A DNA stretch of 64,000 nt, taken from Candidatus Moraniibacteriota bacterium (lineage in GTDB: Bacteria > Patescibacteriota > Minisyncoccia > Moranbacterales > GCA-2747515). Positions 9,541-38,583 of this stretch are shown piece after piece (the stretch's first letter is position 1; every line of letters starts with the position of its first letter). The notes beneath the pieces were generated by a model. That model had not been told where the DNA came from. It was given only the letters and a program-made list of their open reading frames with translations, and did no database searches. The position numbers were made by a program, and so were the translations under genes. The stretch is from NCBI GenBank assembly GCA_040772365.1, contig JAXGYI010000003.1:7234-71233 (forward strand), written 5' to 3'.

Positions 9541-9624
9541 TAATTATTTTTATACACGAAAACGTCGCGGTGTGTGGTGTGCTATACTGACAGAAAGCAG
9601 TTTTTTCCTTGGAAAGAAATACAT

Positions 9625-22312: not shown

Positions 22313-22324
22313 ATTATCAACACT

Positions 22325-24505
22325 ATGGTGAGTAGGCGACAGGTAAAAAAATATCTCTACTTGGTGCGATCCTTTTTTGCAACAATACGCAGCGAGGGTA
22401 TTGTGCGTACAGTGCGACGACTGTATTATTTCGTGCGTTATGGTAAGGGTGTGGCGTCACGAGAGGAGTACGATCATTACCGCATGCGACATAAAATTCC
22501 CGCACACATGAAGCACGTACGTGAGGTGGTACGACCCACGACGTCGCGTGATGTACCTATGTCATATGATGGCCCACCGATCGATATCATCATCCCAGTG
22601 TACAATGGCTATGAGTATCTTGCACCGCTATTTGACAGTATTGTGGCGCATACTGACATGCCATATCGTGTGATTGTGATTGATGATGCATCACCGGATG
22701 AACAGGTGATGTCGTTTGTAGCACAATTACCAGAGCGCTATCCGTCTGCAGAGATCATTGTGCAACGTAATGCGGAAAATGTGGGGTTTGTTCGTTCGGT
22801 AAATGCCGGCATGGCACAGGCACGGTCGCACTGTGTAGTGCTCAACACGGATACGGAAGTGCCGCCCAGATGGCTATCGCGTTTGCTGCGTCCAATTATA
22901 GAAGATGCTACCATCGCCAGCGCTACGCCAATGACCAATGCCGGTGAAATTTTTAGTTTTCCAGAGATCATCACCAATAATGCGATGCTATGTAATGCTA
23001 CGGTTGCGCAGGTGGACCACTTTTTTCAGAAACTTGTACCACAGGAGTGGATTACGGTGCCGACAGGAATGGGCTTTTGCATGGCGATGAACAAGGCAGC
23101 ATATGACCGTATCGGCACATTTGATGCAGAGGCATTTGGGCGCGGATATGCGGAGGAAAATGATTGGTGCCAGCGTGCCATTGCTGCAGGATTTACCAAT
23201 GTTGTGGTGCCCAATCTTTTTATCTATCACAAGCATGGTGGATCGTTTCTATCACAAGAGAAGCAAGAGCTCTTGGCGCGTAATTTACGCACACTCAATA
23301 AGCGTTATCCCGGATATGATCGGATGATACAGAAGTTTATCACCGCGGATCCATTGCGAGGCATACGTATGGTGTTGCTATTGTGGATTATCACTAATGT
23401 GTGTGCCAAAAAAACAGTGCTGTATATTGACCACGAGTTGGGCGGTGGTGCAAATGCTTACACGAAAGAGCGTGTGGCGGAGATTGTGAAAGCGGGCAAT
23501 GTGGCGATTGTGGTGAGCTATAATGTGACACAAAATGTCTATCATCTAACATATTATAGTGAGGCGCAGCATGGCACTGTAGAGGCGGCAACGCTGGAGG
23601 AGTTTACATGGGTTTTGGCGCAGGTGCCAATGCATGAGATTGTGGTGAGCCAGGTGGTGTCACATCCATCACCGTGTACAGTGTTGACATGGATTACAGC
23701 AATGATTGCACGCACGAAGGCACGAAGTACGTTTTTGGTGCACGACTTTTATGCGGTGTGTCCGAGTTTCAATTTATTGAATGATCAGGGTGTGTACTGC
23801 GGTGTACCACAGGATGTAGAGGTGTGCATGCGATGCATGGCACGCAATAAGGGAGATTTTCGCATGTACAGTAGCGAGAAGAATGTGCGGGCATGGCGCA
23901 GGCAGTGGCACGCGTTTTTACAATCCATGGACACCATCGTGTGTTTTTCACAGTCGTCAAAGGACATTATGGTGCGCGCATATCCTGATATTCTGAGTCG
24001 CATAACGATTATACCGCATGAGGTGCATTACATTACGGAGCAGCCAAAGATTGTACCAAAAACTGCCGAACAGAAAGTAGTCGTTGGCGTTTTGGGAGGC
24101 ATTAACTATCAAAAGGGTTCGCATATTGTGCGTGATATGGTGCGGGAGATTGAGCAACGATGCTTGCCGGTGCAGATTGTCGTTATCGGACACCTGGCGC
24201 TTAAGATGCGCAGTAAGGCATTGACGGTACACGGTGTTTTTAAGCAAGGTGAGATTGTATCGCTTACCGAGCACTATAAAATTGATGTATTTATCATCCC
24301 ATCCATTTGGCCGGAGACATTTTCTTACACGGCAGAAGAGGTAATGCAGATGCAGATGCCACTTATAGTATTTGATCTTGGTGCACCAGCAGAGCGTGTA
24401 CGCAACTATGTGCACGGCAGTGTTGTTGGGGAACGTACGGCTACGGCGCTTCTTGATCACGTGTGTACTGTACAGCAGCGTCGCAGTGCGAATCAAAAAA
24501 TATAA
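22325..24505 (+). CDS. Bifunctional glycosyltransferase (GT2 domain plus C-terminal GT-B-like domain)
   Basis: IDIIIPVYNGYEYLAPLFDSI…VIDDASPD GT2 signature. The C-terminal half has a Rossmann-like GT-B pattern. Confidence 0.7.
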   Translation: MVSRRQVKKYLYLVRSFFATIRSEGIVRTVRRLYYFVRYGKGVASREEYDHYRMRHKIPAHMKHVREVVRPTTSRDVPMSYDGPPIDIIIPVYNGYEYLAPLFDSIVAHTDMPYRVIVIDDASPDEQVMSFVAQLPERYPSAEIIVQRNAENVGFVRSVNAGMAQARSHCVVLNTDTEVPPRWLSRLLRPIIEDATIASATPMTNAGEIFSFPEIITNNAMLCNATVAQVDHFFQKLVPQEWITVPTGMGFCMAMNKAAYDRIGTFDAEAFGRGYAEENDWCQRAIAAGFTNVVVPNLFIYHKHGGSFLSQEKQELLARNLRTLNKRYPGYDRMIQKFITADPLRGIRMVLLLWIITNVCAKKTVLYIDHELGGGANAYTKERVAEIVKAGNVAIVVSYNVTQNVYHLTYYSEAQHGTVEAATLEEFTWVLAQVPMHEIVVSQVVSHPSPCTVLTWITAMIARTKARSTFLVHDFYAVCPSFNLLNDQGVYCGVPQDVEVCMRCMARNKGDFRMYSSEKNVRAWRRQWHAFLQSMDTIVCFSQSSKDIMVRAYPDILSRITIIPHEVHYITEQPKIVPKTAEQKVVVGVLGGINYQKGSHIVRDMVREIEQRCLPVQIVVIGHLALKMRSKALTVHGVFKQGEIVSLTEHYKIDVFIIPSIWPETFSYTAEEVMQMQMPLIVFDLGAPAERVRNYVHGSVVGERTATALLDHVCTVQQRRSANQKI

Positions 24506-24614
24506 TGTATTGCGAAAATTTTTTTCTATGATATTATGATAATGTAGATAGATAGTACGAAATGGTATACGGTGGTTAATCTTTGCGCCCATCATCTGTT
24601 TTTGTGCATCTGCT

Positions 24615-26048
24615 TTGTTCTCCGTGCGCGACGCACAGGCGCAATTTCAAGAGGTACGATTGACATCCGGCTTTTTTGGGGAATATAGCCCATCGTTGTC
24701 TGGGGATAAAATTGTATGGCTTGACAATCGTCATTCAAGCGAAACAGATACAGAGGTTTATTTGTATGATTTTACAACAAAAAAAGAGAGACGCATTACA
24801 AATGTTGCTAGTAGAAAGGATGATGTCTCTATTTCTGGTAATCGGATTGTATGGACGGATTGGCGTAATGGAAATCAGGATATTTACATGTACGATTTAG
24901 CTACAAATGTTGAAAAACGTATCACTACCAATACCAAATCGCAAGTGTATCCAAAAATTGACGGAGATAAGATTGTATGGCAGGACTATCGAGATGGATC
25001 GATAGGGTCCGCTGTGTATATGTATGACCTTGCCACTAACACGGAGAAGCGACTTGTTACTTCCGAGGGGAAATATCAGGAACGCCCCGCAATATCTGGC
25101 AACTACGTTGTATGGTCTGATACAACCAGCAATCCCAATGGGCTACTACGGCTGTATAATATCTTCACTAGTGTCACAACGTATCCCTTGATTAGCGACA
25201 AGGGAGATCGTATGGACTTTGTTGCAATTTCTGGTAATAAGGTGGCGTACAGATATAACGAAAATGGAACAGGGCGGTACAATGTCTACGTCTATGACAT
25301 TGATACAAAAACAGAAGTAAAGGTAACAAAAAATACAACAACGGACCTACGAGATCTGGCAATTTCTGGTAATAAGGTGGCATGGACAGACAATCGCAAT
25401 GGCAATCTCGATATTTATCTTTATGATCTTGCAACTGCCAAAGAAACGCGCATCACAACCAATGCAGAAGAGCAGTCTGAGCCAACAATTTCTGGAAATC
25501 GGCTGGCGTGGAAGGACTTTCGACATGGAGGTGCAGACATCTTTCTTGTAGACTTTTCTCCTACAGCTGTGGAACCGCCAGTAGCTACTCCCAAGCCCGT
25601 TCACCGCTTCTACTCCGAAGAATTTCAAGCACACTTCTACACCATCTCTGAAGTAGAGAAAAACCATATCATTGCCACTTATCCACCCCGCACCTGGAAC
25701 TATGAAGGTGTTGCCTATAATGCGATTAGTGATAGTCTTCCGGGTATGGCGCCGATCCACCGTTTCTATTCTCTGGCTAGTAGAAAGCATTTCTATACCA
25801 TCTCTGAAGAGGAAAAGAACCGTCTCATTGGCGGAGCATATCCGGCAGCACAATTTACTTATGAGGGTGTTGCCTGGTACGCACACCAAAAGAACGCTGC
25901 TGCAACACGTCCGCTGCATCGCTTCTATTCCGAGAATAGTGCTGTGCACTTCTATACGGCATCGGAAAGTGAAAAAAACCACATCATTGCCACCTATCCA
26001 CCCCATATTTGGAACTATGAAGGAGTGGCGTGGCATGCGTTACAATAA
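24615..26048 (+). CDS. Secreted beta-propeller-repeat protein (TolB-like ISGxKIVW…DIYMYDL blades, about 8 copies) with a C-terminal module of three ~45-aa RFYS…HFYT…YEGVAWYA repeats
   Basis: Tandem blades of ~42 aa. In frame upstream of the TTG at 24615 lies a signal-peptide-like segment (…FAPIICFCASALFSVRDAQA) without a canonical ATG, so the true start is uncertain. C-terminal triple repeat at ~25595-26040. Confidence 0.7.
   Translation: MFSVRDAQAQFQEVRLTSGFFGEYSPSLSGDKIVWLDNRHSSETDTEVYLYDFTTKKERRITNVASRKDDVSISGNRIVWTDWRNGNQDIYMYDLATNVEKRITTNTKSQVYPKIDGDKIVWQDYRDGSIGSAVYMYDLATNTEKRLVTSEGKYQERPAISGNYVVWSDTTSNPNGLLRLYNIFTSVTTYPLISDKGDRMDFVAISGNKVAYRYNENGTGRYNVYVYDIDTKTEVKVTKNTTTDLRDLAISGNKVAWTDNRNGNLDIYLYDLATAKETRITTNAEEQSEPTISGNRLAWKDFRHGGADIFLVDFSPTAVEPPVATPKPVHRFYSEEFQAHFYTISEVEKNHIIATYPPRTWNYEGVAYNAISDSLPGMAPIHRFYSLASRKHFYTISEEEKNRLIGGAYPAAQFTYEGVAWYAHQKNAAATRPLHRFYSENSAVHFYTASESEKNHIIATYPPHIWNYEGVAWHALQ
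25605..25813 (+). repeat. Direct repeat copy A (~209 bp, apparently identical to 27092-27300)
   Basis: Nucleotide stretch cgcttctactccgaagaatttcaagcacacttctacacc…tctgaagagga recurs 1487 bp downstream. Confidence 0.8.
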
Positions 26049-26132
26049 GGAAAGAATAAACAGCTCATCATGAGCTGTTTATGCTCTAGAGAACAATACG
26101 ATTATAATCTTAATGTCTTTAATGACAAAAAA

Positions 26133-27535
26133 ATGAAGAAACTATGCCTCTTTATTCTCCCGACACTCTTTTTCATCGGACAGTCAACATGGGCGCAGGA
26201 AATGCGTATCACTCTTAATGATGGAGTGGATCATTATAATCCTGCAATTTCTGGTGATAAAATTGTTTGGAATGATATCGTAGCGGGAATGGAGATATTT
26301 ATCTCTACGACCTGACAACCGGAGAGGAAACGCGTATCACAACGGATGTGGAATCTCAGAGAGATCCCAGTATCTCTGGCGACAAAATTATTTGGAAAGA
26401 TCTTCGAGATGGCTTCTTCGGCAGTATTTATATGTATGATCTTACTACGAAAACAGAAACGCGTATTACGGGAGGTCTCGCAGTTCCATTTTATCCAAAA
26501 ATATCTGGCAATATCATTGTATGGGAGGATCGGAGAGAGGCGGGTAATCCGGACATTTATATGTACGATCTGACTACAGGCACAGAAAAAAAGGTTAGTA
26601 CGTATGCCAGTAAAAAGTCTAAACCAGCTATTTCTGGCAATAACATTGTGTGGGAGGATGAGCGCAATGGCAATTCGAACATCTATATGTATGACCTTGC
26701 TACAAATACAGAAAAAAAGATTAGCACACATACTAGTAGACAGATCGTTCCAGCTGTTTCTGGCAATATCATTGTGTGGGAGGATTATCGTGGTGGCAAC
26801 TGGGACCTCTACATGTATGACCTTTCTACAAACACAGAAAAAAAAGTTACTACGGATACATATGAAAAGAAAAATCCCTCCATCTCCGGTAATATCATCA
26901 CATGGGATGATAATCGTCATGGGAGTCGTGATATTTATATGTACGATCTAGTACGTTAAAAAGAGAAACGACTTACTCATGGGGCGGTATCTTGGAATTC
27001 TAGATTGTCCGGCAATCGAATTGTCTGGAGCGATAGTCGCACGGGAACATATCAGGTCTATCTTGTGTACACAGACAATCAACCTATCTATCGCTTCTAC
27101 TCCGAAGAATTTCAAGCACACTTCTACACCATCTCTGAAGTAGAGAAAAACCATATCATTGCCACTTATCCACCCCGCACCTGGAACTATGAAGGTGTTG
27201 CCTATAATGCGATTAGTGATAGTCTTCCGGGTATGGCGCCGATCCACCGTTTCTATTCTCTGGCTAGTAGAAAGCATTTCTATACCATCTCTGAAGAGGA
27301 GAAAAACGAACTCATCAACAATAAATACCCTGAAGCAAAATTCACCTATGAAGGTATTGCATGGTATGCACACAAAACACCGCAATCTTTCACCACACCT
27401 CTGTATAGATTCTACTCAAAGGCCCATGCCGTTCACTTCTATACCGTTAGTCAAGCAGAGAAGGAATACATTCAAAACACCTATCCGCAAGATATCTGGA
27501 ACTATGAAGGTATTGCGTGGTATGGGATGAGGTAG
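26133..27535 (+). pseudogene. Disrupted paralogue of the upstream beta-propeller/triple-repeat surface protein. It has a signal peptide, propeller blades and the C-terminal repeat module, but is broken by a 1-bp deletion (~26277) and an in-frame TAA (26957-26959).
   Basis: ORFs 26070-26315, 26348-26959 and 27005-27535 read as one protein across a -1 frameshift (gat-atc-gta-gcg-gg where the blade consensus predicts gat-Tat-cgt-agc-ggg). The stop falls where the blade consensus has Thr/Asn. Confidence 0.6.
27092..27300 (+). repeat. Direct repeat copy B (~209 bp identical to 25605-25813)
   Basis: See copy A. Encodes identical aa …RFYSEEFQAHFYTISEVEKNHIIATYPPRTWNYEGVAYNAISDSLPGMAPIHRFYSLASRKHFYTISEEE. 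Confidence 0.8.
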
Positions 27536-27664
27536 GCTCTCATAGCACATAGTCTAGAAATCCGCTATACTTCAAGTCAGCCCAGAGAAAGAAGGGTTGC
27601 TTGATGTCGTATTTATAGGTATGCTATAGGAGATAATATATTCAAAAATAGATACACAGAAAAA

Positions 27665-29743
27665 ATGAAAAACATATTTTATACGATCATATTTCTGAGC
27701 GCTATTTTTTTGTGTAGTGCAACAGCAGAGGACGTGTGTGCCGCTGATTTACATGTGCCGCAAGGTGGCTATAGTACCATTGGTGCAGCTATTAAAGCTG
27801 CGCAGGCAGGCGATCGTGTTATAGTGGCACCGGGTATCTATCGTGAAAATATTAGTATCCGTAAAAATATTGCAGTCATTTCTACGGATGGTGCAGCGCA
27901 CACGGTTATTGATGGTGGCGGACGTGATACGGTGGTACTTTTTGCTGACACTAGATTTGATGGTACGCATTCCGCACGTCTGTCGGGCTTTACAATTCGT
28001 GGCGGTCGTAGTGGTGAGGGACGTGGTGGCGGCGTTACAATGTACAATACGGATGGCATCGTAGAGCAGTGCAATATTATAAGCAATGTATCAACTATGG
28101 ATGCCGGTGCAATCTTGATGAATGATCGTGTGAACGGTGTAGTACGCAACAATACGATTACCGGTAATACTGCTGTGCGCTTTGGAGGTGCGATTATGGT
28201 AGTTTTGAATTCCCATCCACTCATCTATGGCAATACAATTACAGATAACACAGTGAGTGGCAATGCACTGTCGAGTGGTGGTGCACTTTTTGTGGACAGC
28301 CATTCATCGCCACAAGTTGTTAACAACACCATGCGCGGAAATACTGCAGCATTTGCTGGGGGTGCAATCTCGCTGCGCGTGGGCGTGAATGCAGTGATTG
28401 ATGGCAATACGATTGACCGTAATAGTGCCGCATATGGTGGTGGGATTCACATTGAAAGTGAGGGTGGCGGCGCATTACTCCGCGATAACACTATCACAAA
28501 TAATAGTGCGCACGAGAGGGATATTTCTGTAGGCTCTGGTTATGGTGGCGGCATCTCCATCTATGATAGGTCTGTGCCAACCATTGAAAAAAATATCATT
28601 GAGTCGAATTATGCAGATCGTGGTGGTGCAGGAATTGTTATTGCTGAGCAGGCAGTAGCGACGATTGCGCATAATACAATTCGAGGAAATAGCTTGCCAC
28701 AACAGGATGGACGCGTGGGTGGTGGCATCCATGCAACACATGCGACCATGCAGGCTTATAATAACACTATCAGTGATAATACAGCATTCATCGGTGGTGG
28801 CGTGGCACTTTTAGCAGGCGTGACAGCAAGGGTAGAGCAAAACACTATTGTACGCAACACTGTGCCAACATCCACGGCAGTGAATGCGGCAAGTGGTGGT
28901 GGTATTTTTATCCAAAGCTCTGCAGCATCTGCAGTAGTGATCAATAACATCATTACGCAAAATCAAGATCACCAAATTTTTGAAGAGCATAAAAAGGGTG
29001 TACTACGCAATAATATTGTCAATGATGACAGTAAGGGGATGTATTTCAACTGGGACACCTATACACTACACACAGTAACCGACATGGACAGTAGCAGCGC
29101 TGTTAATGCAGATGGTACGGTGAGTGGCACGGAGGGTTTTACAGATAGCGATTTTCGTATTGGCGCAACATCTGTTGGTATTGATAGGGGCATGAGCTCT
29201 GACATGACGTATGATTATGATTATCGCTTGCGCAGTGGTGTGCCAGATATTGGTGCTTTTGAGTATGCGCCATCATACAGTGTAGTACATCCAGTATATC
29301 GTTTTTGGAGTGATACTTTTGGTCATCACTTCTATACACTTAATCAACAAGAGCGTAATCACATTATGGAAACGTACGCTGCGAAGCAGTGGCGGTATGA
29401 GGGCGTGGCATTTCGCGCATTTCCTCTAGCACAGTGCCAGGGAGATCGTGTGTATCGTTTTTGGAGTGACGTTTTTCGCGGACACTTTTATACCATTTCT
29501 ACACAGGAGCGTGACTATATCATGGCATCATATGCGGACAATGTGTGGCGTTATGAGGGTGAGGCGTATTGCGCACAGCGTACTTCTATCACTGGGACAA
29601 CGGCACTCTTTCGCTTTTGGAGTGCGGCGTATAGCGGACACTTCTATACCATTAGTACCGCAGAGCGTGATCAGGTTATTGCAGCATATGATGACAGTAT
29701 TTGGAACTATGAGGGTGTTGGATATCATGTGTATACGCGGTAG
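27665..29743 (+). CDS. Secreted right-handed parallel beta-helix (NosD/pectin-lyase-fold-like) protein with a C-terminal triple RFWS…HFYT…YEG repeat module
   Basis: Signal peptide MKNIFYTIIFLSAIFLCSATA. About ten repeats of the NNTI(T/S)GN(T/S)A…GGAI type (PbH1-like). C-terminal three ~45-aa repeats at ~29285-29740. Confidence 0.7.
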   Translation: MKNIFYTIIFLSAIFLCSATAEDVCAADLHVPQGGYSTIGAAIKAAQAGDRVIVAPGIYRENISIRKNIAVISTDGAAHTVIDGGGRDTVVLFADTRFDGTHSARLSGFTIRGGRSGEGRGGGVTMYNTDGIVEQCNIISNVSTMDAGAILMNDRVNGVVRNNTITGNTAVRFGGAIMVVLNSHPLIYGNTITDNTVSGNALSSGGALFVDSHSSPQVVNNTMRGNTAAFAGGAISLRVGVNAVIDGNTIDRNSAAYGGGIHIESEGGGALLRDNTITNNSAHERDISVGSGYGGGISIYDRSVPTIEKNIIESNYADRGGAGIVIAEQAVATIAHNTIRGNSLPQQDGRVGGGIHATHATMQAYNNTISDNTAFIGGGVALLAGVTARVEQNTIVRNTVPTSTAVNAASGGGIFIQSSAASAVVINNIITQNQDHQIFEEHKKGVLRNNIVNDDSKGMYFNWDTYTLHTVTDMDSSSAVNADGTVSGTEGFTDSDFRIGATSVGIDRGMSSDMTYDYDYRLRSGVPDIGAFEYAPSYSVVHPVYRFWSDTFGHHFYTLNQQERNHIMETYAAKQWRYEGVAFRAFPLAQCQGDRVYRFWSDVFRGHFYTISTQERDYIMASYADNVWRYEGEAYCAQRTSITGTTALFRFWSAAYSGHFYTISTAERDQVIAAYDDSIWNYEGVGYHVYTR

Positions 29744-29794
29744 CTATGTACAAAAGTATCTATCTAGGATAGAGTGTATGCGTAAATTAGTATC

Positions 29795-30253
29795 ATGCAA
29801 TCTATGAGGTATTTATGGATTTTAGTTGGTGGTATTGGCGCCATGATAGTTATGGGATGTAGCAGCGATCCGGTGTCTGTAACACCACAAAAAAAAGACA
29901 TCTTCGCTCCGCAAAACGCAGGGGACACTACGTCGCTTGATGCATCGCAGGATGGCGCATCGTCAGTTGTAGATCATGCAGAGCCACAGTCAGCCGCCAC
30001 CGCACCAGGGAATGATTTGTCACAATCAGATCCGGTGGAGCATGCATCGCAAGCAGTATCATCAGAACATGTATCGCCGAAAGAGCAAGGCACTTCTGCA
30101 GAGGCTACTGCAACAGCAGGGCATGCATCCGAAAAAAAAGAGACGTCTTCCGTGAGTGATGCAGACATGGAAAGGATTGCTGCAGAGGCAAAAAAATGTG
30201 TTGACGGTGGCGGCGTATACAACACATTTGCACAGAAATGCTTTCAAAACTAA
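29795..30253 (+). CDS. Small lipoprotein, low-complexity Ser/Ala/Glu-rich
   Basis: Signal peptide with lipobox …AMIVMGC|SSDP. No recognisable domain. Confidence 0.45.
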   Translation: MQSMRYLWILVGGIGAMIVMGCSSDPVSVTPQKKDIFAPQNAGDTTSLDASQDGASSVVDHAEPQSAATAPGNDLSQSDPVEHASQAVSSEHVSPKEQGTSAEATATAGHASEKKETSSVSDADMERIAAEAKKCVDGGGVYNTFAQKCFQN

Positions 30254-30263
30254 ATAGATAGTG

Positions 30264-32132
30264 CTATGGGATGTGCCATCCGATTCCCTCATAGCGCCAG
30301 ATGTGATCGGGATATGTCGCAATAACAGTATCGCGTTCAGGGGCACTCGCTGTATAGAAGTGTCCTTGTTTTGTGTCAGACCAAAAGCGGTAGACCGGCG
30401 TGGATTGCGCGAGAGGGTAGGGGTAAGCATAGTAGGCAATACCCTCATAGTTCCATATGTAGGGATCATACTGCGCAATAACGGCGTCGCGCTCTTCTTG
30501 TGAAGCTGTATAGAAATGATGTTGCTGGGCAGTACTCCAAAAGCGGTAGATCGGCGTAGTGTTTGCTTGTTGCTGCGAGAAAGCAAGAAAGGCAATTCCC
30601 TCATAGCGCCAGATGTGGTCTGGGTAGGTTGCAATGACAGCATCACGCTCAGTAATGCTTGCTGTGTAGAAATGCCCTTGTGTCGCAGCAGACCAAAAGC
30701 GGTAAATGGGTGTTGTCGCGCATGACTCTGTTGGAATGGTACCGGACTGTGCAGCGCGCAAGGCAGTGTAGAGATTTAGTCGTCTGTTGCATGCTACAGT
30801 ATTTTCTAGAGAAGCCGGATGATCACTACTTGCAAGGATGATGGCGCGTACTGCTGTGGGAGAGAGAAAGGGCTTGTGTCCGAAAATCATTGCGGCAGCA
30901 CCTGAAACAAATGCGGCGGCATAGGAGGTACCGTCGCCGGTGTAGTAGGTGTTATTTTCTATAGTGCCTACAATACTTTCACCTGGTGCAGCGATGTCTA
31001 CAGATGTACCATAATTAGAAAATGATGCCAAAGTGTCATTTTTTGTAGATGCTCCGACGCAGATGATGTTAGAGAGATCGTAATTGCATGGGTACTGCGG
31101 AGTGACATCAACATTGTCGCCAACTCTGTCATTGCCACCATTGCCTGCAGCAGTAACGACTACGCCATCAAATGTAGAAAGGGCATCATATTCTGATCTT
31201 GCATAGGATGGTCCGCCAAAACTGGCATTAAGCACCTTAATGCCGTGTGTTTTGGCAAATGCAATTGCTTGCAATTCTGATGCTAGGGTGAGGTCAAATC
31301 GTAACGCCATAATTTTGCCAGTATTATAGCGGCTCATACCGGCAAGTCCGGTAGCATTGTTCGTAATGGCGGCAAAAATACTAGCTACCATTGATCCGTG
31401 ACCATATAAGTCAGGGTGTGTGGATGTATCATAGGGATCATGGTCATCATCGGCGAAATCCCAGCCATGCTTTGGGCATGTTGCATCCATTGCGGGATTA
31501 CAGTGAGGGGCTGTCCAGAGATTTCCGTGCAACTCAGGATTGTCATGGAGGATCCCGCTATCAATAAATGCTACAGTTGTAGGTGTTGCAGAAGGGTGTT
31601 CAATATCCCACGCCTCTGTGCTATCAATATCACTATTCGTGGACTGTTGGTGGTACCACTGGTAACCCGCAATGAAATACGGATCATTTGGACTAAATGC
31701 TGGCGTCTTGATATAGTTGGGCTCGGCATAGGCTACATCGGCACTTGCAGAGAGTCGCGCAATGAGCGTCTCGGTGTTTTCCTCTTCCGCTGCAATAATG
31801 ACAATATTGAGATCAGTAAAAGAATGTCGGATTTGCAGGGCATCAGTTTTTGCGGCAGCCTTAAGAGAGGAGAGAATCTTATCACTTGCATGCGCAGTGA
31901 TGTCATGTGGAGATGCAGATATGCCAATTTCTTTGCGTGTAGCCGCGTGAAACTTCTTGATGGCAGTATCATGCATGCGTACAATAACCTCACCATCTCG
32001 ATACGGTGCTGGATGGGTAGCGTGATTGAATGGGCGCTGAGGGAGTTCTTCAGCAGCTACTGTGTGGGTATGTGGAATACATAATGCAAAAACAATAGCG
32101 GCGGTAGAAGCGCAGGAAAGTATTTGTGTCAT
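30264..32132 (-). CDS. Secreted subtilisin-like serine protease (peptidase S8) with a C-terminal triple RFWS…HFYT…YEGIA repeat module
   Basis: Catalytic triad contexts AFIDSGI (Asp), HGSMVAS (His), GTSYAAAFVSGAAAM (Ser). Signal peptide MTQILSCASTAAIVFALCIP. Start chosen at the internal Met (the ORF track extends to 32297, overlapping the next gene). Three C-terminal repeats encoded ~30264-30700. Confidence 0.8.
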   Translation of the reverse strand: MTQILSCASTAAIVFALCIPHTHTVAAEELPQRPFNHATHPAPYRDGEVIVRMHDTAIKKFHAATRKEIGISASPHDITAHASDKILSSLKAAAKTDALQIRHSFTDLNIVIIAAEEENTETLIARLSASADVAYAEPNYIKTPAFSPNDPYFIAGYQWYHQQSTNSDIDSTEAWDIEHPSATPTTVAFIDSGILHDNPELHGNLWTAPHCNPAMDATCPKHGWDFADDDHDPYDTSTHPDLYGHGSMVASIFAAITNNATGLAGMSRYNTGKIMALRFDLTLASELQAIAFAKTHGIKVLNASFGGPSYARSEYDALSTFDGVVVTAAGNGGNDRVGDNVDVTPQYPCNYDLSNIICVGASTKNDTLASFSNYGTSVDIAAPGESIVGTIENNTYYTGDGTSYAAAFVSGAAAMIFGHKPFLSPTAVRAIILASSDHPASLENTVACNRRLNLYTALRAAQSGTIPTESCATTPIYRFWSAATQGHFYTASITERDAVIATYPDHIWRYEGIAFLAFSQQQANTTPIYRFWSTAQQHHFYTASQEERDAVIAQYDPYIWNYEGIAYYAYPYPLAQSTPVYRFWSDTKQGHFYTASAPERDTVIATYPDHIWRYEGIGWHIP

Positions 32133-32229
32133 TGCGCGCTGAAAATATGTTTTGCGGGAAAGAGTAGTGTAGATATACACTTTGTTGAAGTGGTTCATGT
32201 GCCAAGGCATAGCAGGAGGTGATGTTGTG

Positions 32230-32784
32230 TTACAGACTTTCAATAAATTCTTGTTGTAGACGTGTAATGCACGTTTTTTTGATTCCACCATCATCAATTT
32301 CGTCGCAGATGGTTATATCTTTTTGTGCGATAGCACGGTCTTTGAGACAGTAGTCCTTTGGTAGTCCATTGTGTGCATCGCAATGTGTGATGGAATCACT
32401 AGAAGAAAGACCGCAGGCATTTCTGCAATAACGAAGCTCCTTTGCGTCATGTTTGTACGGCTCACATTCACGTGCACAATCTGGTGGGGTGATGTTGATA
32501 TAGGCTGTGGATGGTGATGTAGTAGCGGGAGGGACGGTATCTTGTGGCTCTTGTTCTACGATAGATTGCGGATCTAGATCGTTGTGCGTAATAGGCACAT
32601 CAGGGGTTTCTACTGGCACGTCATGTTGTGATGGTGGTGCTGTGTCTGTAGGTGGTGTGACGAAAACGTCACGGTCACGGGCGCTGAAAACAGTGATTAC
32701 AAAATAGAGCACGATAATGACAGCTATGGTGAGTGCCGTGTAGAGGATGTGTATAGGGCGTAGATTTTTTCGTAGCATAGTCAT
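32230..32784 (-). CDS. Membrane-anchored protein with a Pro/Thr-rich linker and a Cys-rich C-terminal domain (hypothetical)
   Basis: N-terminal TM anchor MTMLRKNLRPIHILYTALTIAVIIVLYFVITVF, then a PT-rich stretch, then about 10 Cys over 90 aa. Start trimmed to avoid overlap with the upstream gene. Confidence 0.4.
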   Translation of the reverse strand: MTMLRKNLRPIHILYTALTIAVIIVLYFVITVFSARDRDVFVTPPTDTAPPSQHDVPVETPDVPITHNDLDPQSIVEQEPQDTVPPATTSPSTAYINITPPDCARECEPYKHDAKELRYCRNACGLSSSDSITHCDAHNGLPKDYCLKDRAIAQKDITICDEIDDGGIKKTCITRLQQEFIESL

Positions 32785-32801
32785 GCAGGAATAAAGATTG
32801 A

Positions 32802-34712
32802 TTAGTATGCAGCATCGAGTGCGATATCCTTGTAGTAGTAACGCATAATGCGTGCGTAACTCCATCCATGATCGCGAGCAAGAGCAAGAGATCCGTGTGC
32901 AATAAGGCCTACCATGTGATTACCCTCAGTCTCTAGTGTAGATGTGGATTTTGTGGCGTGTTTGCCATAGGGATCTTTGACGGATTGGCACCATGGATAT
33001 AGTCTTGATCCCCAGCGCTCCTCAAAGCTGCGCGTACGACCATCACTCCAAGAGCTATATGGCGTGAGTGCTGTTTCGCCACGTGATGTCATAATGACGC
33101 CACGGGTTGCCTCTGCTGCTTTGCGGATAGTGGAATATTTCTGTTCCCAGTCATAGCCACGGTAGATTTGCGAACCGCTATCAGAGCGAATCTTGAATCC
33201 CAACGGAGCGTACTTTGTAGCATAATCTACGTACCACTTTCCGTAAGTGCGGAACATCGTTGTCATGACCTTGCTATGTTCAAATGGTCCGGTGCCGGTC
33301 ATCTCGCCCATACCCCATACGTAGTGCTCCATCGGCAAGGTATTGATTACCCAAATCTGCTTAACGCTATTTGTCGTACCGCCAATGATGTCACGTCCAC
33401 TGTAGTAGCGCACAGTGATGGATCCACGGTAATGATCGTAAGAGGACTGTGGGCGATGCACGTCAAAGATCATCGTGGCATTATCACCATCAGCAGCGTC
33501 AAAAGTGACTTTTTCATCAATAATGCGATCGCTGATGGACGAGTAAACTTTGAGACTTCCACCACCATCGTAAGTGACTTTTGTGCGCGTGCTACCACCG
33601 ATTTGCGCTATGATCGCGCCACTCTTGTCGCGGATGTTATAAGGCTTGTTAGCGTTAATTTCAAAAGGATTTTGCTGCATGGCAGAGCGGTCGTAGTGCC
33701 ACAGACCGACAGAAATGAGTGGACCAGTATTGCCGATGAGGGCGTAGTGTTTTTCTATGTCGTTGATGGTGTAGAAGTGATCGCGGGTGTTATAGAGACG
33801 ATGGACAGGTAGTGTGCCTACAGTTGGCGTGGGGTAGGCGTAGAATGCAACACCTTCATAGATATAGCCAGATGCTGTAGAACTCAATTGATCTTTTTCA
33901 TGTGTGCTGATGGTGTAAAAGTGATTACCAGTGATGGTGTGATTGAAACGATAAACAGGTTGCGCATTATTTTTTGGATCACGAAACGCATAAAATGCTG
34001 CGCCCTCATAGCGGTATGGTGTGCGGTTTTGCAAGAGAGTGCGCTTTTCATTTTCGTCAGCAGTATAGAAGTGATTCCCTGTAGTAGTATTGATGAAGCG
34101 ATAGATGGTATGATTGGCCATTTTAGTGGCGTTGTCCAGTGTCGCAGCCTCACCATCGTTAGCAGTATAGAAATGATCGCCATTAGCGTGGTTAATGAAG
34201 CGGTATACGGTGGTAGTGCCAGCCGCCTTATGTGGATAGGCATAGAAAGCAATGCCTTCTGATGCGTAGATAGTAGAGAGGTGTTGGGTAATGTAATCTT
34301 TTTCTTCTTGAGAAATGGTGTAAAAGTGGTCACCATTCGTATGATTGACGAAGCGGTAGATAGGCTGTGCATCGTGTAGATCGGAGATATAGCTATAGAA
34401 TGCAATACCTTCATAGGTGTAGATGTCTGCGTGCTGTGCAATAAGAGTATTTTTTTCGTTTTCGTCTGCAGTGTAGAAATGATCGCCGTTTGTAGTGTTG
34501 ACAAAGCGGTGGACGGGCACGGTGCCGTCTGCTTGTGCGGCAAATGCGTAAAAAGCTACTCCTTCCGCCTGATATTGCGTGCCGACGGTGTGATCAGGGT
34601 AGGCGTAGAATGCGATGCCCTCATCCGTATAGCTCGCATGTGTACTATGTTGTGGCAAGAGAATAGCACTGCCAAGGAGCGTCCATGCGATGATTAGTGC
34701 GATGTGTTTCAT
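32802..34712 (-). CDS. Secreted protein with an N-terminal array of about 6-8 RF[VI]N…GDHFYT…YEGIAFYAY repeats and a C-terminal SpoIID/LytB (amidase-enhancer) domain
   Basis: Signal peptide MKHIALIIAWTLLGSAILLP. Repeats over aa ~25-330. The C-terminal domain carries SpoIID-like …MEHYVWGMGEM… and …GNHMVGLIAHGSLALA… motifs. Confidence 0.7.
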   Translation of the reverse strand: MKHIALIIAWTLLGSAILLPQHSTHASYTDEGIAFYAYPDHTVGTQYQAEGVAFYAFAAQADGTVPVHRFVNTTNGDHFYTADENEKNTLIAQHADIYTYEGIAFYSYISDLHDAQPIYRFVNHTNGDHFYTISQEEKDYITQHLSTIYASEGIAFYAYPHKAAGTTTVYRFINHANGDHFYTANDGEAATLDNATKMANHTIYRFINTTTGNHFYTADENEKRTLLQNRTPYRYEGAAFYAFRDPKNNAQPVYRFNHTITGNHFYTISTHEKDQLSSTASGYIYEGVAFYAYPTPTVGTLPVHRLYNTRDHFYTINDIEKHYALIGNTGPLISVGLWHYDRSAMQQNPFEINANKPYNIRDKSGAIIAQIGGSTRTKVTYDGGGSLKVYSSISDRIIDEKVTFDAADGDNATMIFDVHRPQSSYDHYRGSITVRYYSGRDIIGGTTNSVKQIWVINTLPMEHYVWGMGEMTGTGPFEHSKVMTTMFRTYGKWYVDYATKYAPLGFKIRSDSGSQIYRGYDWEQKYSTIRKAAEATRGVIMTSRGETALTPYSSWSDGRTRSFEERWGSRLYPWCQSVKDPYGKHATKSTSTLETEGNHMVGLIAHGSLALARDHGWSYARIMRYYYKDIALDAAY

Positions 34713-34814: not shown

Positions 34815-36167
34815 ATGAAAATTGGCGTTATTGGAATTGGTTTTGTGGGACTACCACTTGCTGCAGCGTTTGCAGAAATGGGTAATTATGTGCACTGTTT
34901 GGATGTGGACAAGAAAAAAATTGACCGCTTACGCAAGGGGCAGGTACCGATCAATGAACCGGGGTTGGATGATCTTGTGGCGTCGGGACTGGAGCGAAAA
35001 TTATTGCACTTTACAACAGATTATGATGACGTGATTAACGACAGCGAGATTGTGTTTATCGCCGTGGGGACACCGCCGGGTGCTGATGGCAGTGCAGACT
35101 TGCAGTATGTAGAAAGCGTGGCGCGCGAGATTGGGCGGCGGATTACAGCGCCGCTGATTGTGGCAGACAAATCCACCGTGCCAGTCGGCACAGCTGATCG
35201 CGTGAGAAATATCATTCGTGAAGAGTTACGTAAGCGCAAAAAGCGTATCACTTTTCACGTGGTGAGCAACCCAGAGTTTATGGCGGAGGGGCGCGCAGTG
35301 AAGGACATGATGGAACCGAGCCGCGTGATTGTGGGCACAAGTAATGCAGCGGTAGCAAAGAAAATGTATGCACTCTACAAGCCATTTATGATGCGACAGG
35401 ATCGATTTTATGTGATGGGCGTGCGTGACGCAGAGCTTACAAAATATACTGGCAATACTAACCTTGCGATGAAGGTATCGTTCATCAATGCCATTGCGGG
35501 ATTGGCAGATGTGTTGGGTGCAGATGTGAAGCATATTGCAGAGGGCATTGGCAGTGATCCGCGTATCGGCGATCAATTTTTACATGCCAGCTGTGGCTAT
35601 GGAGGAAGTTGCTTTCCAAAGGACGTGAAGGCGTTGGTGCGCTTTGCAGAGGAACATCATTTACCGGAAGAATACCTTCGTCTTTTTCGTGCGATTGAGG
35701 ACGTGAATGCATTTCAAAAAAAGTTAGTGGCGCGAAAAGTGTTGGCGCATTTTAAAAATGATATTCAGGGAAAGGTGTTTGCACTATGGGGCTTGGCATT
35801 TAAGGCAAATACCAATGATATGCGCGAGTCTGCAGCAATCACGATTGTCAATGAATTAACAGCACATGGCGCAAAAATACGTGCCTATGATCCGATGGCG
35901 ATAGATGAGGCGCGACACGTCTACCTCAAAGACAATCGTGGTGTGACATATGAAGATGCGGATAAGTACGCCGTATTACGCGGTGTCGATGCGCTGATCG
36001 TTGCAACAGAAACCAAAGAGTATCGTACTATTGATATGACACGTGTAAAAAAACTTCTCAAAAATCCCGTGATTTTTGATGGGCGTAATCTCTATGATCC
36101 TGCAGAAATGAAGACAGCGGGATTTACCTATTACGGTATTGGTCGCGGATTACGTGCGGGATTTTAA
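34815..36167 (+). CDS. ugd: UDP-glucose 6-dehydrogenase (nucleotide-sugar dehydrogenase family)
   Basis: N-terminal MKIGVIGIGFVGLPLAAAFA NAD-binding motif and the catalytic-Cys context GYGGSCFPKD. Confidence 0.85.
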   Translation: MKIGVIGIGFVGLPLAAAFAEMGNYVHCLDVDKKKIDRLRKGQVPINEPGLDDLVASGLERKLLHFTTDYDDVINDSEIVFIAVGTPPGADGSADLQYVESVAREIGRRITAPLIVADKSTVPVGTADRVRNIIREELRKRKKRITFHVVSNPEFMAEGRAVKDMMEPSRVIVGTSNAAVAKKMYALYKPFMMRQDRFYVMGVRDAELTKYTGNTNLAMKVSFINAIAGLADVLGADVKHIAEGIGSDPRIGDQFLHASCGYGGSCFPKDVKALVRFAEEHHLPEEYLRLFRAIEDVNAFQKKLVARKVLAHFKNDIQGKVFALWGLAFKANTNDMRESAAITIVNELTAHGAKIRAYDPMAIDEARHVYLKDNRGVTYEDADKYAVLRGVDALIVATETKEYRTIDMTRVKKLLKNPVIFDGRNLYDPAEMKTAGFTYYGIGRGLRAGF

Positions 36168-36310
36168 TGCTGCCACTATGCTGGCTACAGTGAGGGTGGC
36201 TGTGCGACAGTGTGTGTTGTGTAGGAAAGGTGTGGAGTATTGTGAACGCTGGTGCTCCATGGTACCATAAAAATAGCAGAGACATACGTATTTAATTTTT
36301 TCATGTATTT

Positions 36311-37258
36311 ATGGACAAGCAAGAACAGAGCATCGACATCTCCGTTGTTGTGCCAGTATATAATGAAGAGGGGAATGTGCAGGAGTTGCATCGGCGTATT
36401 ATTGCGGCATGTCAGAAAATCGGCAAGTCGTACGAGGTGATTTTTGTGGATGACGGATCACGTGATGGCACGGTAGCGGCCTGTGCAAAGCTTTCTCCGC
36501 TGACTTTGGTACGCTTGCGCAAGAATTTTGGGCAGACGGCGGCATTTGACGCAGGATTTAAAGCAGCGCGCGGTACGGTCATTATCACAATGGATGGAGA
36601 TTTGCAAAATGATCCGTCAGATATTGAATTGCTTCTTGCAAAGATGCGTGAGGGGTATGATGTTGTATCGGGATGGCGCTATGAGCGTAAGGATTCACTG
36701 AGTAAGAGGATTTTTTCACGCACGGCGGATAAACTGCGCAAAATCTTGCTCCATGATTCTATTCATGATTCTGGCTGTAGCTTGAAGGCATACAATGCAC
36801 AAGCACTGAAGAGCATTGATCTCTTTGGGGAAATGCATCGCTTTATCCCAGCGCTACTGGAATTGGATGGCTATCGTGTTGGTGAAGTGAAGGTAACGCA
36901 CCATCCACGTGTACATGGTGTGACAAAGTATAATTGGAAGCGGTCGGTGAAGGGCTTTGTGGATATGGTGTCGCTGTGGTTTTGGGGACGATATGCATCG
37001 CGCCCAATTCATTTTTTTGGTGCTATAGGGATGAGTTTTATGTTTCTAGGCACTGTGATTCTCGGGTGGATGGCTGTAGAAAAAATCTTGCTTCACGCGT
37101 CGATCGCAGAACGAATCTGGCCATTAATGGGCGTGTTTCTTGTTGTGCTCGGTGTGCAGTTTTTTGTTTTTGGATTGTTAACAGATATTATGATGAAAAC
37201 CTACTACACATCGCGTAAGCGTATGAACTATGCGGTACAGTCTACTGTGCGACAGTAA
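36311..37258 (+). CDS. Polyprenol-phosphate glycosyltransferase (GT2; GtrB/ArnC/DPM1-like) with a C-terminal TM hairpin
   Basis: ISVVVPVYNEEGNVQEL…VDDGSRDGT…TMDGDLQNDP signature of GtrB-like synthases. Two C-terminal TM helices. Confidence 0.8.
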   Translation: MDKQEQSIDISVVVPVYNEEGNVQELHRRIIAACQKIGKSYEVIFVDDGSRDGTVAACAKLSPLTLVRLRKNFGQTAAFDAGFKAARGTVIITMDGDLQNDPSDIELLLAKMREGYDVVSGWRYERKDSLSKRIFSRTADKLRKILLHDSIHDSGCSLKAYNAQALKSIDLFGEMHRFIPALLELDGYRVGEVKVTHHPRVHGVTKYNWKRSVKGFVDMVSLWFWGRYASRPIHFFGAIGMSFMFLGTVILGWMAVEKILLHASIAERIWPLMGVFLVVLGVQFFVFGLLTDIMMKTYYTSRKRMNYAVQSTVRQ

Positions 37259-37420
37259 ATCTTTTTTGGGCAGAAGGGGGGTGTGATACAATACAAGATG
37301 AAAGCGTGGAGTGTAGTACTGCATTGGCGGGTAGGTAAAATAATGCAAGGAAAGCGTGATGGGGCTTTCAGAAGCTGGAGGAATGTATTCTGTGGGCGGA
37401 AAAAATTGTACTGATGTCGT

Positions 37421-38575
37421 ATGAAAAAAATCTTGTTTTTCAACTATGAGTATCCACCACTGGGTGGGGGTGCGGCAAATGCCACAAAATATATCATGGA
37501 AGAATTTGCGCAACGTGGTGATGTCTGTGTAGATGTTGTGACCTCAGCAGTGGATAATCGTTACTATAGTGAAAAGATTGGTGGTTGTGTGACGATTCAC
37601 TACGTTCCTATTGGACAGAAGTCGCATCAGCTCAACTTTCAGACAAAACGACAACTCCTCATGTACAGTTGGCGCGCACTGCGGTATGGATTGCGATTGT
37701 CTCGACAGCAGCGCTATGACATGACGCACAGCTTTTTTGCTGTGCCGTGTGGCGTGCTGTCGCTCTTGATGAAGAAGCGCCGTGGATTGCCATACATCGT
37801 ATCATTGCGTGGCGCTGATGTGCCGGGGTATAGTGAGCGCTTTATGCAGATCTATGGAATTTTACGGCCGCTGGTGCGACGCGTGTGGCGCGAGGCAGCA
37901 CATGTTGTGACAAATAGTCAGGGACTCAAAGAGCTTGCCGCTATGAGTGCACCAACACAGATGTTTCTCCATATCCCCAATGGCGTGGATACGCATTTTT
38001 ATACACCGGGCACACGTACGGCTGTAGATCGGCAAAAAGAATTTCGCATCTTGTGTGCGGCACGTCTCTCACGCCGCAAGGGATTTACCGATGCAATTAC
38101 AGCATTTGCTGCAATTGCGCATGATTATCCACATGCTACACTAACGATCGCTGGCGGAGAAGGCAATGCTACTGTGGAGCTGAAAGATCAGGCGCTGCAA
38201 ACAGGATATGGGCACCGTATCGCATTTACTGGTTTATACACAAAAGAGCAGTCGCCAGACATTTACCGTGCGGCAGATGTTTTTGTGATGCCATCGTACA
38301 ATGAAGGAATGAGCAATAATGTGTTGGAAGCGTTGGCATCAGGATTGCCGATTATAATGACGCCAACGGGTGGATCGCAAGAAACTGTGCAAAATGGCAG
38401 TAATGGTTTTATCGTGCCGATGCACAATCCTGACGCGATTGCTATGGCATTGCGACAATTGATGGATGAGGATGGGCTGTGCGAGCGCATGGGCGACGCA
38501 AGCCGTGCACACGCCCTTACAATGAGTTGGGATAGTGTGGCGCAGAATTATTGGGATCTGTATCACAAAACATGA
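37421..38575 (+). CDS. Family 4 (group 1) glycosyltransferase
   Basis: …MPSYNEGMSNNVLEALASGLPIIMTPTGGSQETVQNGSNGF… E-x7-E motif. Confidence 0.8.
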   Translation: MKKILFFNYEYPPLGGGAANATKYIMEEFAQRGDVCVDVVTSAVDNRYYSEKIGGCVTIHYVPIGQKSHQLNFQTKRQLLMYSWRALRYGLRLSRQQRYDMTHSFFAVPCGVLSLLMKKRRGLPYIVSLRGADVPGYSERFMQIYGILRPLVRRVWREAAHVVTNSQGLKELAAMSAPTQMFLHIPNGVDTHFYTPGTRTAVDRQKEFRILCAARLSRRKGFTDAITAFAAIAHDYPHATLTIAGGEGNATVELKDQALQTGYGHRIAFTGLYTKEQSPDIYRAADVFVMPSYNEGMSNNVLEALASGLPIIMTPTGGSQETVQNGSNGFIVPMHNPDAIAMALRQLMDEDGLCERMGDASRAHALTMSWDSVAQNYWDLYHKT

Positions 38576-38583
38576 TGAGGCAT

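Follow-up and report, generated by a model that had tools for sequence, protein, structure and literature searches.

In a survey of glycoside hydrolase family 70 (GH70), DUF5648 (Pfam PF18885) was described as an auxiliary domain of α-glucanotransferases with a '(β3α)3' AlphaFold fold and conserved aromatic residues in the grooves between its subdomains. BSAP-2 and BSAP-3, MACPF toxins that target O-antigen, were found in a study of the Bacteroidales BSAP proteins to have DUF5648 as their C-terminal domains, for which glycan recognition was proposed. Both works gave AlphaFold descriptions of the domain (PMC11299179 and bioRxiv 10.1101/2025.01.06.631476). The experiments of the BSAP study were performed on BSAP-1. 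The C-terminal domain of this protein belongs to a structural cluster other than that of the DUF5648 domains. In addition, a survey of enterococcal endolysins reported one GH25-DUF5648 endolysin and counted DUF5648 among putative wall-binding domains. No binding experiment on DUF5648 was found in the literature searched. Here we describe five neighboring genes, named A to E, whose products contain DUF5648 and which are located in a 64,000-nucleotide stretch (hereafter the window) of Candidatus Moraniibacteriota bacterium (assembly GCA_040772365.1, contig JAXGYI010000003.1, positions 7,234 to 71,233). The original prediction for these genes, which was made from the DNA letters, stated that their repeat has no assigned function. 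This is formally right, but glycan recognition by DUF5648 has already been proposed in print for BSAP-2/-3 and the auxiliary domains of GH70 enzymes, and the suggested binding of a glycan is less new than was assumed.

Anchoring by three tandem motifs has been described in other bacteria. The Cwp proteins of Clostridioides difficile carry three tandem CWB2 motifs, which bind the polymer PSII and all of which are required for anchoring. The heads of these proteins include proteases and peptidoglycan-modifying enzymes, and their genes are directly beside the AP locus that makes PSII (PMC4973711). In S-layer homology (SLH) proteins, three motifs form a pseudo-trimer, and S-layer proteins and enzymes are held non-covalently on pyruvylated secondary cell-wall polysaccharide (as summarized in PMC4973711). 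The comparison with CWB2 and SLH anchoring that had been drawn for genes A to E is apt, as the C. difficile system has the same layout (PMC4973711).

The proteins encoded by all five genes matched PF18885 in a Pfam scan at E ≤ 0.01, with E-values of 7e-30 to 2.5e-80. The scores were 117.8 bits for A, 189.2 for B, 104.4 for C, 125.3 for D and 267.7 for E against a curated gathering cut-off of 25 bits, which bears out the suggested likeness of the repeat to DUF5648. In the same scan, no match to CWB2 (PF04122), SLH (PF00395) or choline-binding CW_binding_1 (PF01473) was found in the repeat regions, which matched DUF5648 only. A hidden Markov model (HMM) made from 16 repeat units was run on the six-frame translation of the entire window. 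It matched 20 times, always within genes A to E at the coordinates proposed for them, and no match was found elsewhere in the window. The E-values of the 16 full-length matches ranged from 1e-18 to 3e-25. Chance is excluded as an explanation of the repeat. Genes A, B, C and D each had three full repeats at the C-terminus. Gene E had four full repeats, two half repeats (β1-β2-α only) and two leading β3-only fragments, or eight pieces, in its N-terminal part. Both the predicted counts (three in A to D and six to eight in E) and the predicted placement of the module, which was C-terminal in four proteins and N-terminal and expanded in the fifth, were thus reproduced by the repeat HMM. The modules encoded in this genome were 37–49% identical to one another, except for those of A and B, which were 77% identical.

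The unit of about 45 residues had been described as a repeat. The unit is real, but structure prediction for three repeats indicates that it is not free-standing and is one blade of a single three-blade domain of about 150 residues. The AlphaFold2 model of the module of B, for which an alignment of 61 sequences was used, had a predicted local distance difference test score (pLDDT) of 97.2 and a predicted TM-score (pTM) of 0.90. Its elements were arranged as strand-strand-helix-strand three times, i.e., (β-β-α-β)x3, with pseudo-threefold symmetry. This predicted fold agrees with the published '(β3α)3' and 'three-bladed β-α propeller' models of DUF5648, and no close solved structure was found for it. 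The residues R, H, T, E and E-G were invariant in every blade, and the module alignment did not contain any conserved stretch of 7–10 columns. A phmmer search with one module returned 10,535 representatives of 50%-identity clusters at E ≤ 1e-3, of which 4,412 were found at E ≤ 1e-10. The locus adds members to a known and catalogued Pfam family, and the S8-DUF5648 and DUF5648-SpoIID architectures are abundant in public data.

The heads joined to the module were of the four types predicted. Gene A (24552–26048, forward strand) encodes a seven-bladed β-propeller head, which matched TIGR04275 (beta_prop_Msarc) of NCBIfam seven times (E = 3.9e-78), and a C-terminal DUF5648 module (E = 5.1e-34). The module is encoded at 25596–26039, in which the repeat HMM matched 25596–25727, 25752–25886 and 25911–26039. 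Gene B (26133–27535, forward strand) is a pseudogene for a protein with a signal peptide, a β-propeller head related to that of A (42% amino acid identity) and a DUF5648 module at 27083–27526 (E = 4.7e-56). Gene C (27665–29743, forward strand) encodes a signal peptide, a right-handed parallel β-helix head similar to NosD and a DUF5648 module at 29291–29734. The Pfam E-values for C were 6.5e-31 for Beta_helix, 5.1e-17 for NosD and 7.2e-30 for DUF5648. Gene D (30264–32210, reverse strand) encodes a subtilase of the S8 family (Peptidase_S8 E = 9.3e-39, 133.9 bits) that has a fervidolysin-type prodomain at its N-terminus (23.9 bits) and ends in a DUF5648 module at 30270–30710 (E = 2.5e-36). Its catalytic triad was intact by motif, including DSG (D191), HGS (H245) and GTS (S403). 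Gene D had been proposed to start at 32132. Its identity and its repeat were confirmed, but its start is probably at 32210, given that the gene called in L001, a locus described below, encodes 648 amino acid residues.

Gene E (32802–34712, reverse strand) encodes a signal peptide, two DUF5648 domains (E = 2.5e-80), whose repeat pieces are at 33744–34643, and a C-terminal domain of the SpoIID/LytB lytic-transglycosylase type. The latter was detected by the SpoIID family of Pfam (E = 6e-8, 33.6 bits with a cut-off of 23), and a profile of the E family matched the SpoIID structures 4rwr (E = 2.5e-14) and 5i1t (E = 1e-12) in the PDB. The score of E against TIGR02669 was 70.8 bits, which is under the 83.3-bit cut-off of that family. 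In the AlphaFold2 model of E (pLDDT 91.6), the C-terminal half matched 5i1t by Foldseek with an E-value of 3.7e-11 and a target TM-score of 0.54. E469 in 'GMGEMTG' was invariant in 63 homologs of E and aligned with the Glu residues of '…ASEM…' and '…AGEM…' (the SEM/GEM motif) in 4rwr and 5i1t, which we take to be the catalytic Glu of SpoIID. Moreover, every invariant column in the alignment of these 63 homologs fell in the SpoIID half. The repeat pieces of E follow its signal peptide at residues ~24–323 in the order of two last-strand fragments, full, full, half, full, full and half, and this layout was kept in the consensus of the 63 homologs. The final blade of each DUF5648 domain has no last strand, and two extra last-strand segments are found at the N-terminus (residues ~28–37 and ~46–56). 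This layout points to circular permutation or to an exchange of strands between the two domains. Domain 1 may be circularly permuted, with one N-terminal strand closing it, and domain 2 may be completed by the other N-terminal strand or by the strand at 331–340 that leads into the SpoIID domain.

A total of 2,947 homologs of E were identified. Those with names were from Moranbacteria/Moraniibacteriota, the Parcubacteria group or Patescibacteria, except for one labeled Candidatus Fimivivens (P0115). In the homologs P0185 and P0200, which were 56–61% identical to E, the precomputed domains were F5/8 type C (PF00754, discoidin) and SpoIID, and DUF5648 was not among them. Judged from these domain assignments, DUF5648 appears to have been replaced by a known carbohydrate-binding module in the two proteins.

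The heads of 78 of the closest database relatives were also examined. They included S8 (10 relatives), CARDB, TSP3, PKD, LRR/BspA, DUF285, NlpC/P60, CHAP, GH114, papain and β-helix domains, all of which are extracellular types, and fn3 and Ig-like heads were also found in relatives. Wall hydrolases paired with DUF5648 included SpoIID (in E and in the listed Patescibacteria matches of the E family), NlpC/P60, CHAP and the GH25 endolysin. Thus, DUF5648 is portable and is joined to unrelated extracellular heads, as the presence of a shared module on different heads in the cluster had led the original prediction to propose. Direct evidence of head swapping was found in the locus L006 (CAYRUU010000024.1), which was collinear with the window and 79% identical to it in DNA from gene C through the module of B. 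The similarity stopped at window position 27083, which is the first codon of repeat 1. Upstream of this position, L006 encodes a GHL10/LamG/Ig head and the window the β-propeller head, and these heads are unrelated. The module of L006 was 71% identical to that of B over 150 ungapped residues. Different heads are therefore found on orthologous modules at the same position, and the break is exactly at the module boundary. The modules clustered by ortholog type and not by genome, with identities of 50–85% among C modules (85% between C of the window and its counterpart in L006) and 57–85% among D modules. Modules of the D type were also found on Kre9 (70%) and fn3 (73%) heads. Concerted evolution of the modules within a genome, which could result from one shared ligand, was considered and was not seen.

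The cluster itself is partly conserved. In L004 (GCA_041583775.1), homologs of E, of a small Cys-containing protein and of D and C are followed by an ortholog of a 726-residue glycosyltransferase, with identities of 45–57% (48% for C), and A and B are missing. Orthologs of D were found in L006, L009, L010 and L011 as well as in L004. Three or four adjacent DUF5648 genes were found in each of L006, L007 and L011, where additional heads included GHL10 with LamG and Ig, a Kre9-type Ig and DUF285. The core of E, small protein, D and C amid glycosyltransferase genes recurs in related genomes. The five DUF5648 genes had been described as adjacent. They are neighbors, but two small genes that lack the repeat lie among them. 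The one at 32230–32778 (reverse strand), directly downstream of E, encodes a small membrane-anchored protein of ~180 residues. Its anchor is N-terminal and is followed by a linker rich in P, T and D and by a C-terminal region of ~85 residues that contains 8 invariant Cys. An alignment covered five independent loci in which this gene directly follows the one for DUF5648-SpoIID (12415–12939 in L003, 11929–12492 in L004, 3491–4018 in L011, 7426–7980 in L012 and 32230–32778 in the window). No Pfam or NCBIfam family was matched by this protein, which may act together with the SpoIID-type enzyme or regulate it. The other gene, at 29795–30253 (forward strand) between C and D, encodes a predicted lipoprotein of 152 residues with a lipobox-like …IVMGC|SS, a low-complexity region rich in S, A and E and a pair of C-terminal Cys. 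This protein likewise matched neither Pfam nor NCBIfam, and in L004 no gene call lies between D and C. Its membership in the system is uncertain.

Signal peptides had been predicted for all five proteins. On inspection and in a rough hydropathy test, the N-termini of B, C, D and E resemble Sec signal peptides. The test is weak evidence, as one cytoplasmic control also passed it. For A, the prediction did not hold in the same way. The open frame of A begins with ATA at 24552 and its first canonical start, TTG, is at 24615. It encodes a hydrophobic signal-like segment (…LIFAPIICFCASALFSVRDAQA) followed by AQA, and no in-frame ATG, GTG or TTG was found between 24552 and this segment. The ATG at 24563 is out of frame with A and reads MVYGG-stop. 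DNA near-identical to that of the window (about 97–100% over aligned stretches) is present in L001 (the Logan assembly of SRR11702768) and L002 (GCA_040769235.1), in which the 5' end of A was identical to that of the window save one substitution in L001. Export of A would need a non-canonical start (ATA/ATC) or a frame slip, and it is also possible that a start was recently lost.

Gene B had been recognized as disrupted, and two lesions were found in it. One is a 1-nucleotide deletion near 26277, where GATTAT has become GATAT, as judged from the propeller repeat pattern in the three-frame translation. The other is an in-frame TAA at 26957–26959. Both were identical in L002. Errors of a single assembly are less likely given this recurrence, although L002 may share reads with the source of the window. 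Rescue of B by an alternative code in which TGA encodes Gly was ruled out, as the stop codon is TAA and TGA ends 8 of the 51 open reading frames of the window. In L001, the head of B is missing entirely. The DNA of the A and B modules was 91.6% identical over 287 bp, whereas their heads were only 42% identical as proteins. Judged from this difference, recombination has probably taken place between the two modules. Moreover, the A/B region differed among the three assemblies. The window (25605–27648) contains A and the pseudogene B, L001 (1254–2588) contains one hybrid of the A head (97.5% identical) and the B module, and L002 (17324–19124) contains A with the third repeat and downstream spacer of B. 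These differences reflect either population variation via module recombination or assembly ambiguity induced by the repeats.

The cluster had been placed directly downstream of a locus for glycan biosynthesis and export. Such a locus is indeed found upstream of it, at 9574–24505, but further glycan genes follow at 34815–39531, and the cluster is therefore embedded in glycan genes and not merely downstream of them. The upstream locus (forward strand) is of the ABC-transporter-dependent type and includes, as identified with Pfam, genes for a GT1 glycosyltransferase, a Wzm-like ABC-2 permease, a Wzt-like ATPase with a Wzt_C domain and a methyltransferase. It also contains genes for large multidomain GT2/GT1 enzymes and for a protein of 516 residues (14144–15694, forward strand) with no Pfam or NCBIfam match. 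The last glycosyltransferase gene of the locus (22325–24505) is orthologous to the one adjoining gene C in L004. The downstream genes (forward strand) encode a UDP-glucose dehydrogenase, a GT2, a GT4 and a flippase-like membrane protein (Pfam and NCBIfam). In other loci, E is inside glycan genes (L003), D is between glycosyltransferase genes (L009 and L010) and a GT2 gene is near the cluster (L011). The linkage to glycosyltransferase genes in the window, L003, L004, L009/L010 and L011 supports, without proving, the suggestion of the original prediction that the repeats may bind the glycan of the neighboring locus. The GC content was 0.30–0.38 at 12001–18000 and 0.44–0.53 elsewhere in the window. 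This low-GC stretch spans the C-terminal domain of Wzt, the methyltransferase, the protein of 516 residues and part of a triple GT2 of 993 residues, and this part of the glycan locus may have been acquired horizontally or be a variable 'serotype' region.

The window also encodes ParB, Mur ligases (MurD-like and MurC), MurG, ComEC, ribosomal proteins and HrcA-GrpE-DnaK. It is chromosomal DNA of a peptidoglycan-making bacterium of the candidate phyla radiation (CPR) that is similar to Moranbacteria (Patescibacteria), in which the synthesis of peptidoglycan is indicated by the MurD-like, MurG and MurC genes. GC skew was positive in each 2-kb bin of positions 1–64000, whatever the gene strand, and the gene for ParB is at 198–1130. 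Judged from these two features, the window probably sits on one replichore near the origin. L006, which is labeled 'uncultured Micavibrio sp.', was 72–79% identical to the window in DNA over collinear stretches, and L008 and L012, which are from the metagenome-assembled genome CAZAJN01, encode D-type modules with 47–59% amino acid identity. The loci of these genomes, which are labeled 'uncultured Micavibrio sp.' or 'uncultured Bdellovibrionales', resemble the Moranbacteria-like window, and their taxonomic labels or binning look doubtful. A genome scan with a single protein as query returned seven loci. The phage collection yielded only four unannotated contigs, which were labeled Listeria phage and were uninformative.

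Taken together, genes A to E would encode proteins exported via Sec, in which a functional head is joined to one DUF5648 domain (two in E). DUF5648 would be a non-catalytic, lectin-like binding module that tethers these heads to the cell-envelope glycan of the producer, acting like three tandem CWB2 or SLH motifs to which it is unrelated. We consider it somewhat probable that DUF5648 anchors proteins to the wall glycan of the producer. The ligand would most probably be the wall polysaccharide of the surrounding Wzm/Wzt-type locus, with the glycan strands of peptidoglycan as the alternative, and the flanking locus is proposed as the source of the ligand only tentatively. Glycan binding by the module, the glycan concerned and retention on the surface of the producer are what we infer from the PF18885 scores, the predicted fold, the extracellular heads, the pairing with wall hydrolases, the apparent replacement by discoidin, the BSAP precedent, synteny, the head replacement, the peptidoglycan genes and the layout shared with C. 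difficile. A broader and equally tentative proposal is that DUF5648 might serve as a general non-covalent wall anchor of Moranbacteria and related CPR bacteria, i.e., a third unrelated solution beside SLH and CWB2, with a capped polysaccharide exported by Wzm/Wzt as the ligand and with heads swapped at the module boundary by recombination. Several observations weigh against anchoring to the producer. The linkage to glycan genes is circumstantial, as envelope genes cluster anyway in small genomes, and in L005 the homolog of E does not adjoin glycosyltransferase genes, the nearest of which (GT2) is ~7 kb away. The modules of paralogs are only 37–49% identical and are grouped by ortholog type, and thus nothing indicates convergence on one shared ligand. 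DUF5648 is also found in diderms and in a contig labeled Nanoarchaeota, which makes a single universal ligand unlikely. Finally, the sole published link to a receptor, that of BSAP-2/-3, concerns a glycan on other cells and not on the producer.

This last point also supports an alternative that we regard as rather unlikely, in which the modules recognize the surface glycan of another cell, i.e., the host or prey of a presumably episymbiotic CPR bacterium, and the heads are effectors of attachment or attack, including a protease, a wall-cutting enzyme and propeller and β-helix domains of adhesin type. The module would then direct these heads to a target, similar to that of the Bacteroidales BSAP toxins, and would not anchor them to the producer. 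The O-antigen targeted by BSAP-2/-3, which carry DUF5648 at the C-terminus, is that of competitor strains, and the LRR/BspA, DUF285, PKD, TSP3, fn3 and Ig-like heads of relatives are typical parts of adhesins. The rapid turnover of A and B, with duplication, pseudogenization, module recombination, three structures in three assemblies and the head replacement in L006, fits genes for interaction with a host, and the module of the E family, which has no invariant column, evolves faster than the catalytic domain. However, proteins of the E type are conserved almost universally in the lineage, have a fixed partner gene and resemble housekeeping wall enzymes. Moreover, in several genomes the genes are surrounded by the glycan locus of the producer itself, and no toxin or pore-forming head was found in the cluster. 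It is also conceivable, but improbable, that DUF5648 binds no glycan. Its partner could instead be a protein, for example an S-layer or the Cys-rich small membrane protein, or it could be a scaffold that stabilizes or oligomerizes exported proteins. The lack of direct binding data in the literature searched would be in line with such a role, the invariant R, H, T, E and E-G of the blades could be purely structural, and E always occurs with a conserved small membrane protein. This small protein, however, goes with E only and not with C or D. In addition, the module is repeatedly paired with carbohydrate- or wall-active heads and appears to have been exchanged for a discoidin-type carbohydrate-binding module, and its threefold pseudo-symmetry and conserved surface aromatics are typical of lectins. 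A role as a signal for secretion or covalent sorting, like LPXTG, PEP-CTERM or the C-terminal domain of the type IX secretion system (T9SS), would agree with the finding that the module of A to D, like that of most relatives, is C-terminal. This role was rejected as highly improbable. In E and its large family, two copies of the module precede the catalytic domain at the N-terminus, which effectively excludes such a signal. Moreover, the module is a well-folded domain of 150 residues, the proteins stop right after the last blade without a hydrophobic tail or sorting motif, and no Pfam match to LPXTG, PEP-CTERM or T9SS C-terminal domain families was found.

Experiments have so far revealed next to nothing about the CPR/Patescibacteria envelope or about attachment to partners in this group. 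The locus offers a compact and testable hypothesis on these subjects, with a small and confidently modeled domain, four different heads and an adjoining candidate ligand locus, and the CWB2/PSII precedent of C. difficile can guide experiments on DUF5648. Its value is in testability rather than in surprise, given that the domain, the architectures and the idea of glycan binding are already in databases or in print. A fluorescent module would show whether the producer is decorated or the host is marked, and either result would be useful for uncultured organisms. If DUF5648 is a general wall anchor of CPR bacteria, modules tagged with GFP would be specific stains for uncultured CPR cells; if the ligand is on another cell, they would stain hosts. 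A first function for a family with >10,000 sequence clusters would follow.

Similar to the DUF5648 domains of GH70 enzymes and BSAP proteins, those of genes A to E belong to the same family (104–268 bits against a cut-off of 25), have the predicted three-blade fold and are used as accessory domains on secreted multidomain proteins. Different from them, they are joined to propeller, β-helix, S8 and SpoIID heads instead of GH70 or MACPF, and they are found in a CPR/Moranbacteria lineage, where several such genes are grouped within a glycan locus in a conserved cluster. E further differs in having two domains with an odd but conserved layout of two β3 strands and twice full-full-half. LytB of Bacillus subtilis, which works with the amidase LytC, consists of three N-terminal CWB2 wall-binding repeats followed by a SpoIID/LytB domain. 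E has the same architecture, in which a binding part of three-repeat type precedes SpoIID, but its binding repeats are DUF5648 instead of CWB2, and no amidase gene was found in the cluster. SLH proteins share the three-motif layout and are unrelated in sequence and fold, and different from SLH systems, no csaB-type pyruvyltransferase was seen in the window. Similar to the CWB2 proteins of C. difficile, A to E have three tandem repeats that form one unit, varied heads and paralogs clustered beside a polysaccharide locus. However, CWB2 and DUF5648 have no sequence relation and different folds, and ligand binding was shown for the former and is proposed for the latter. By analogy, the cluster thus appears to resemble CWB2 and SLH anchoring in its logic and layout while belonging to neither of these families.

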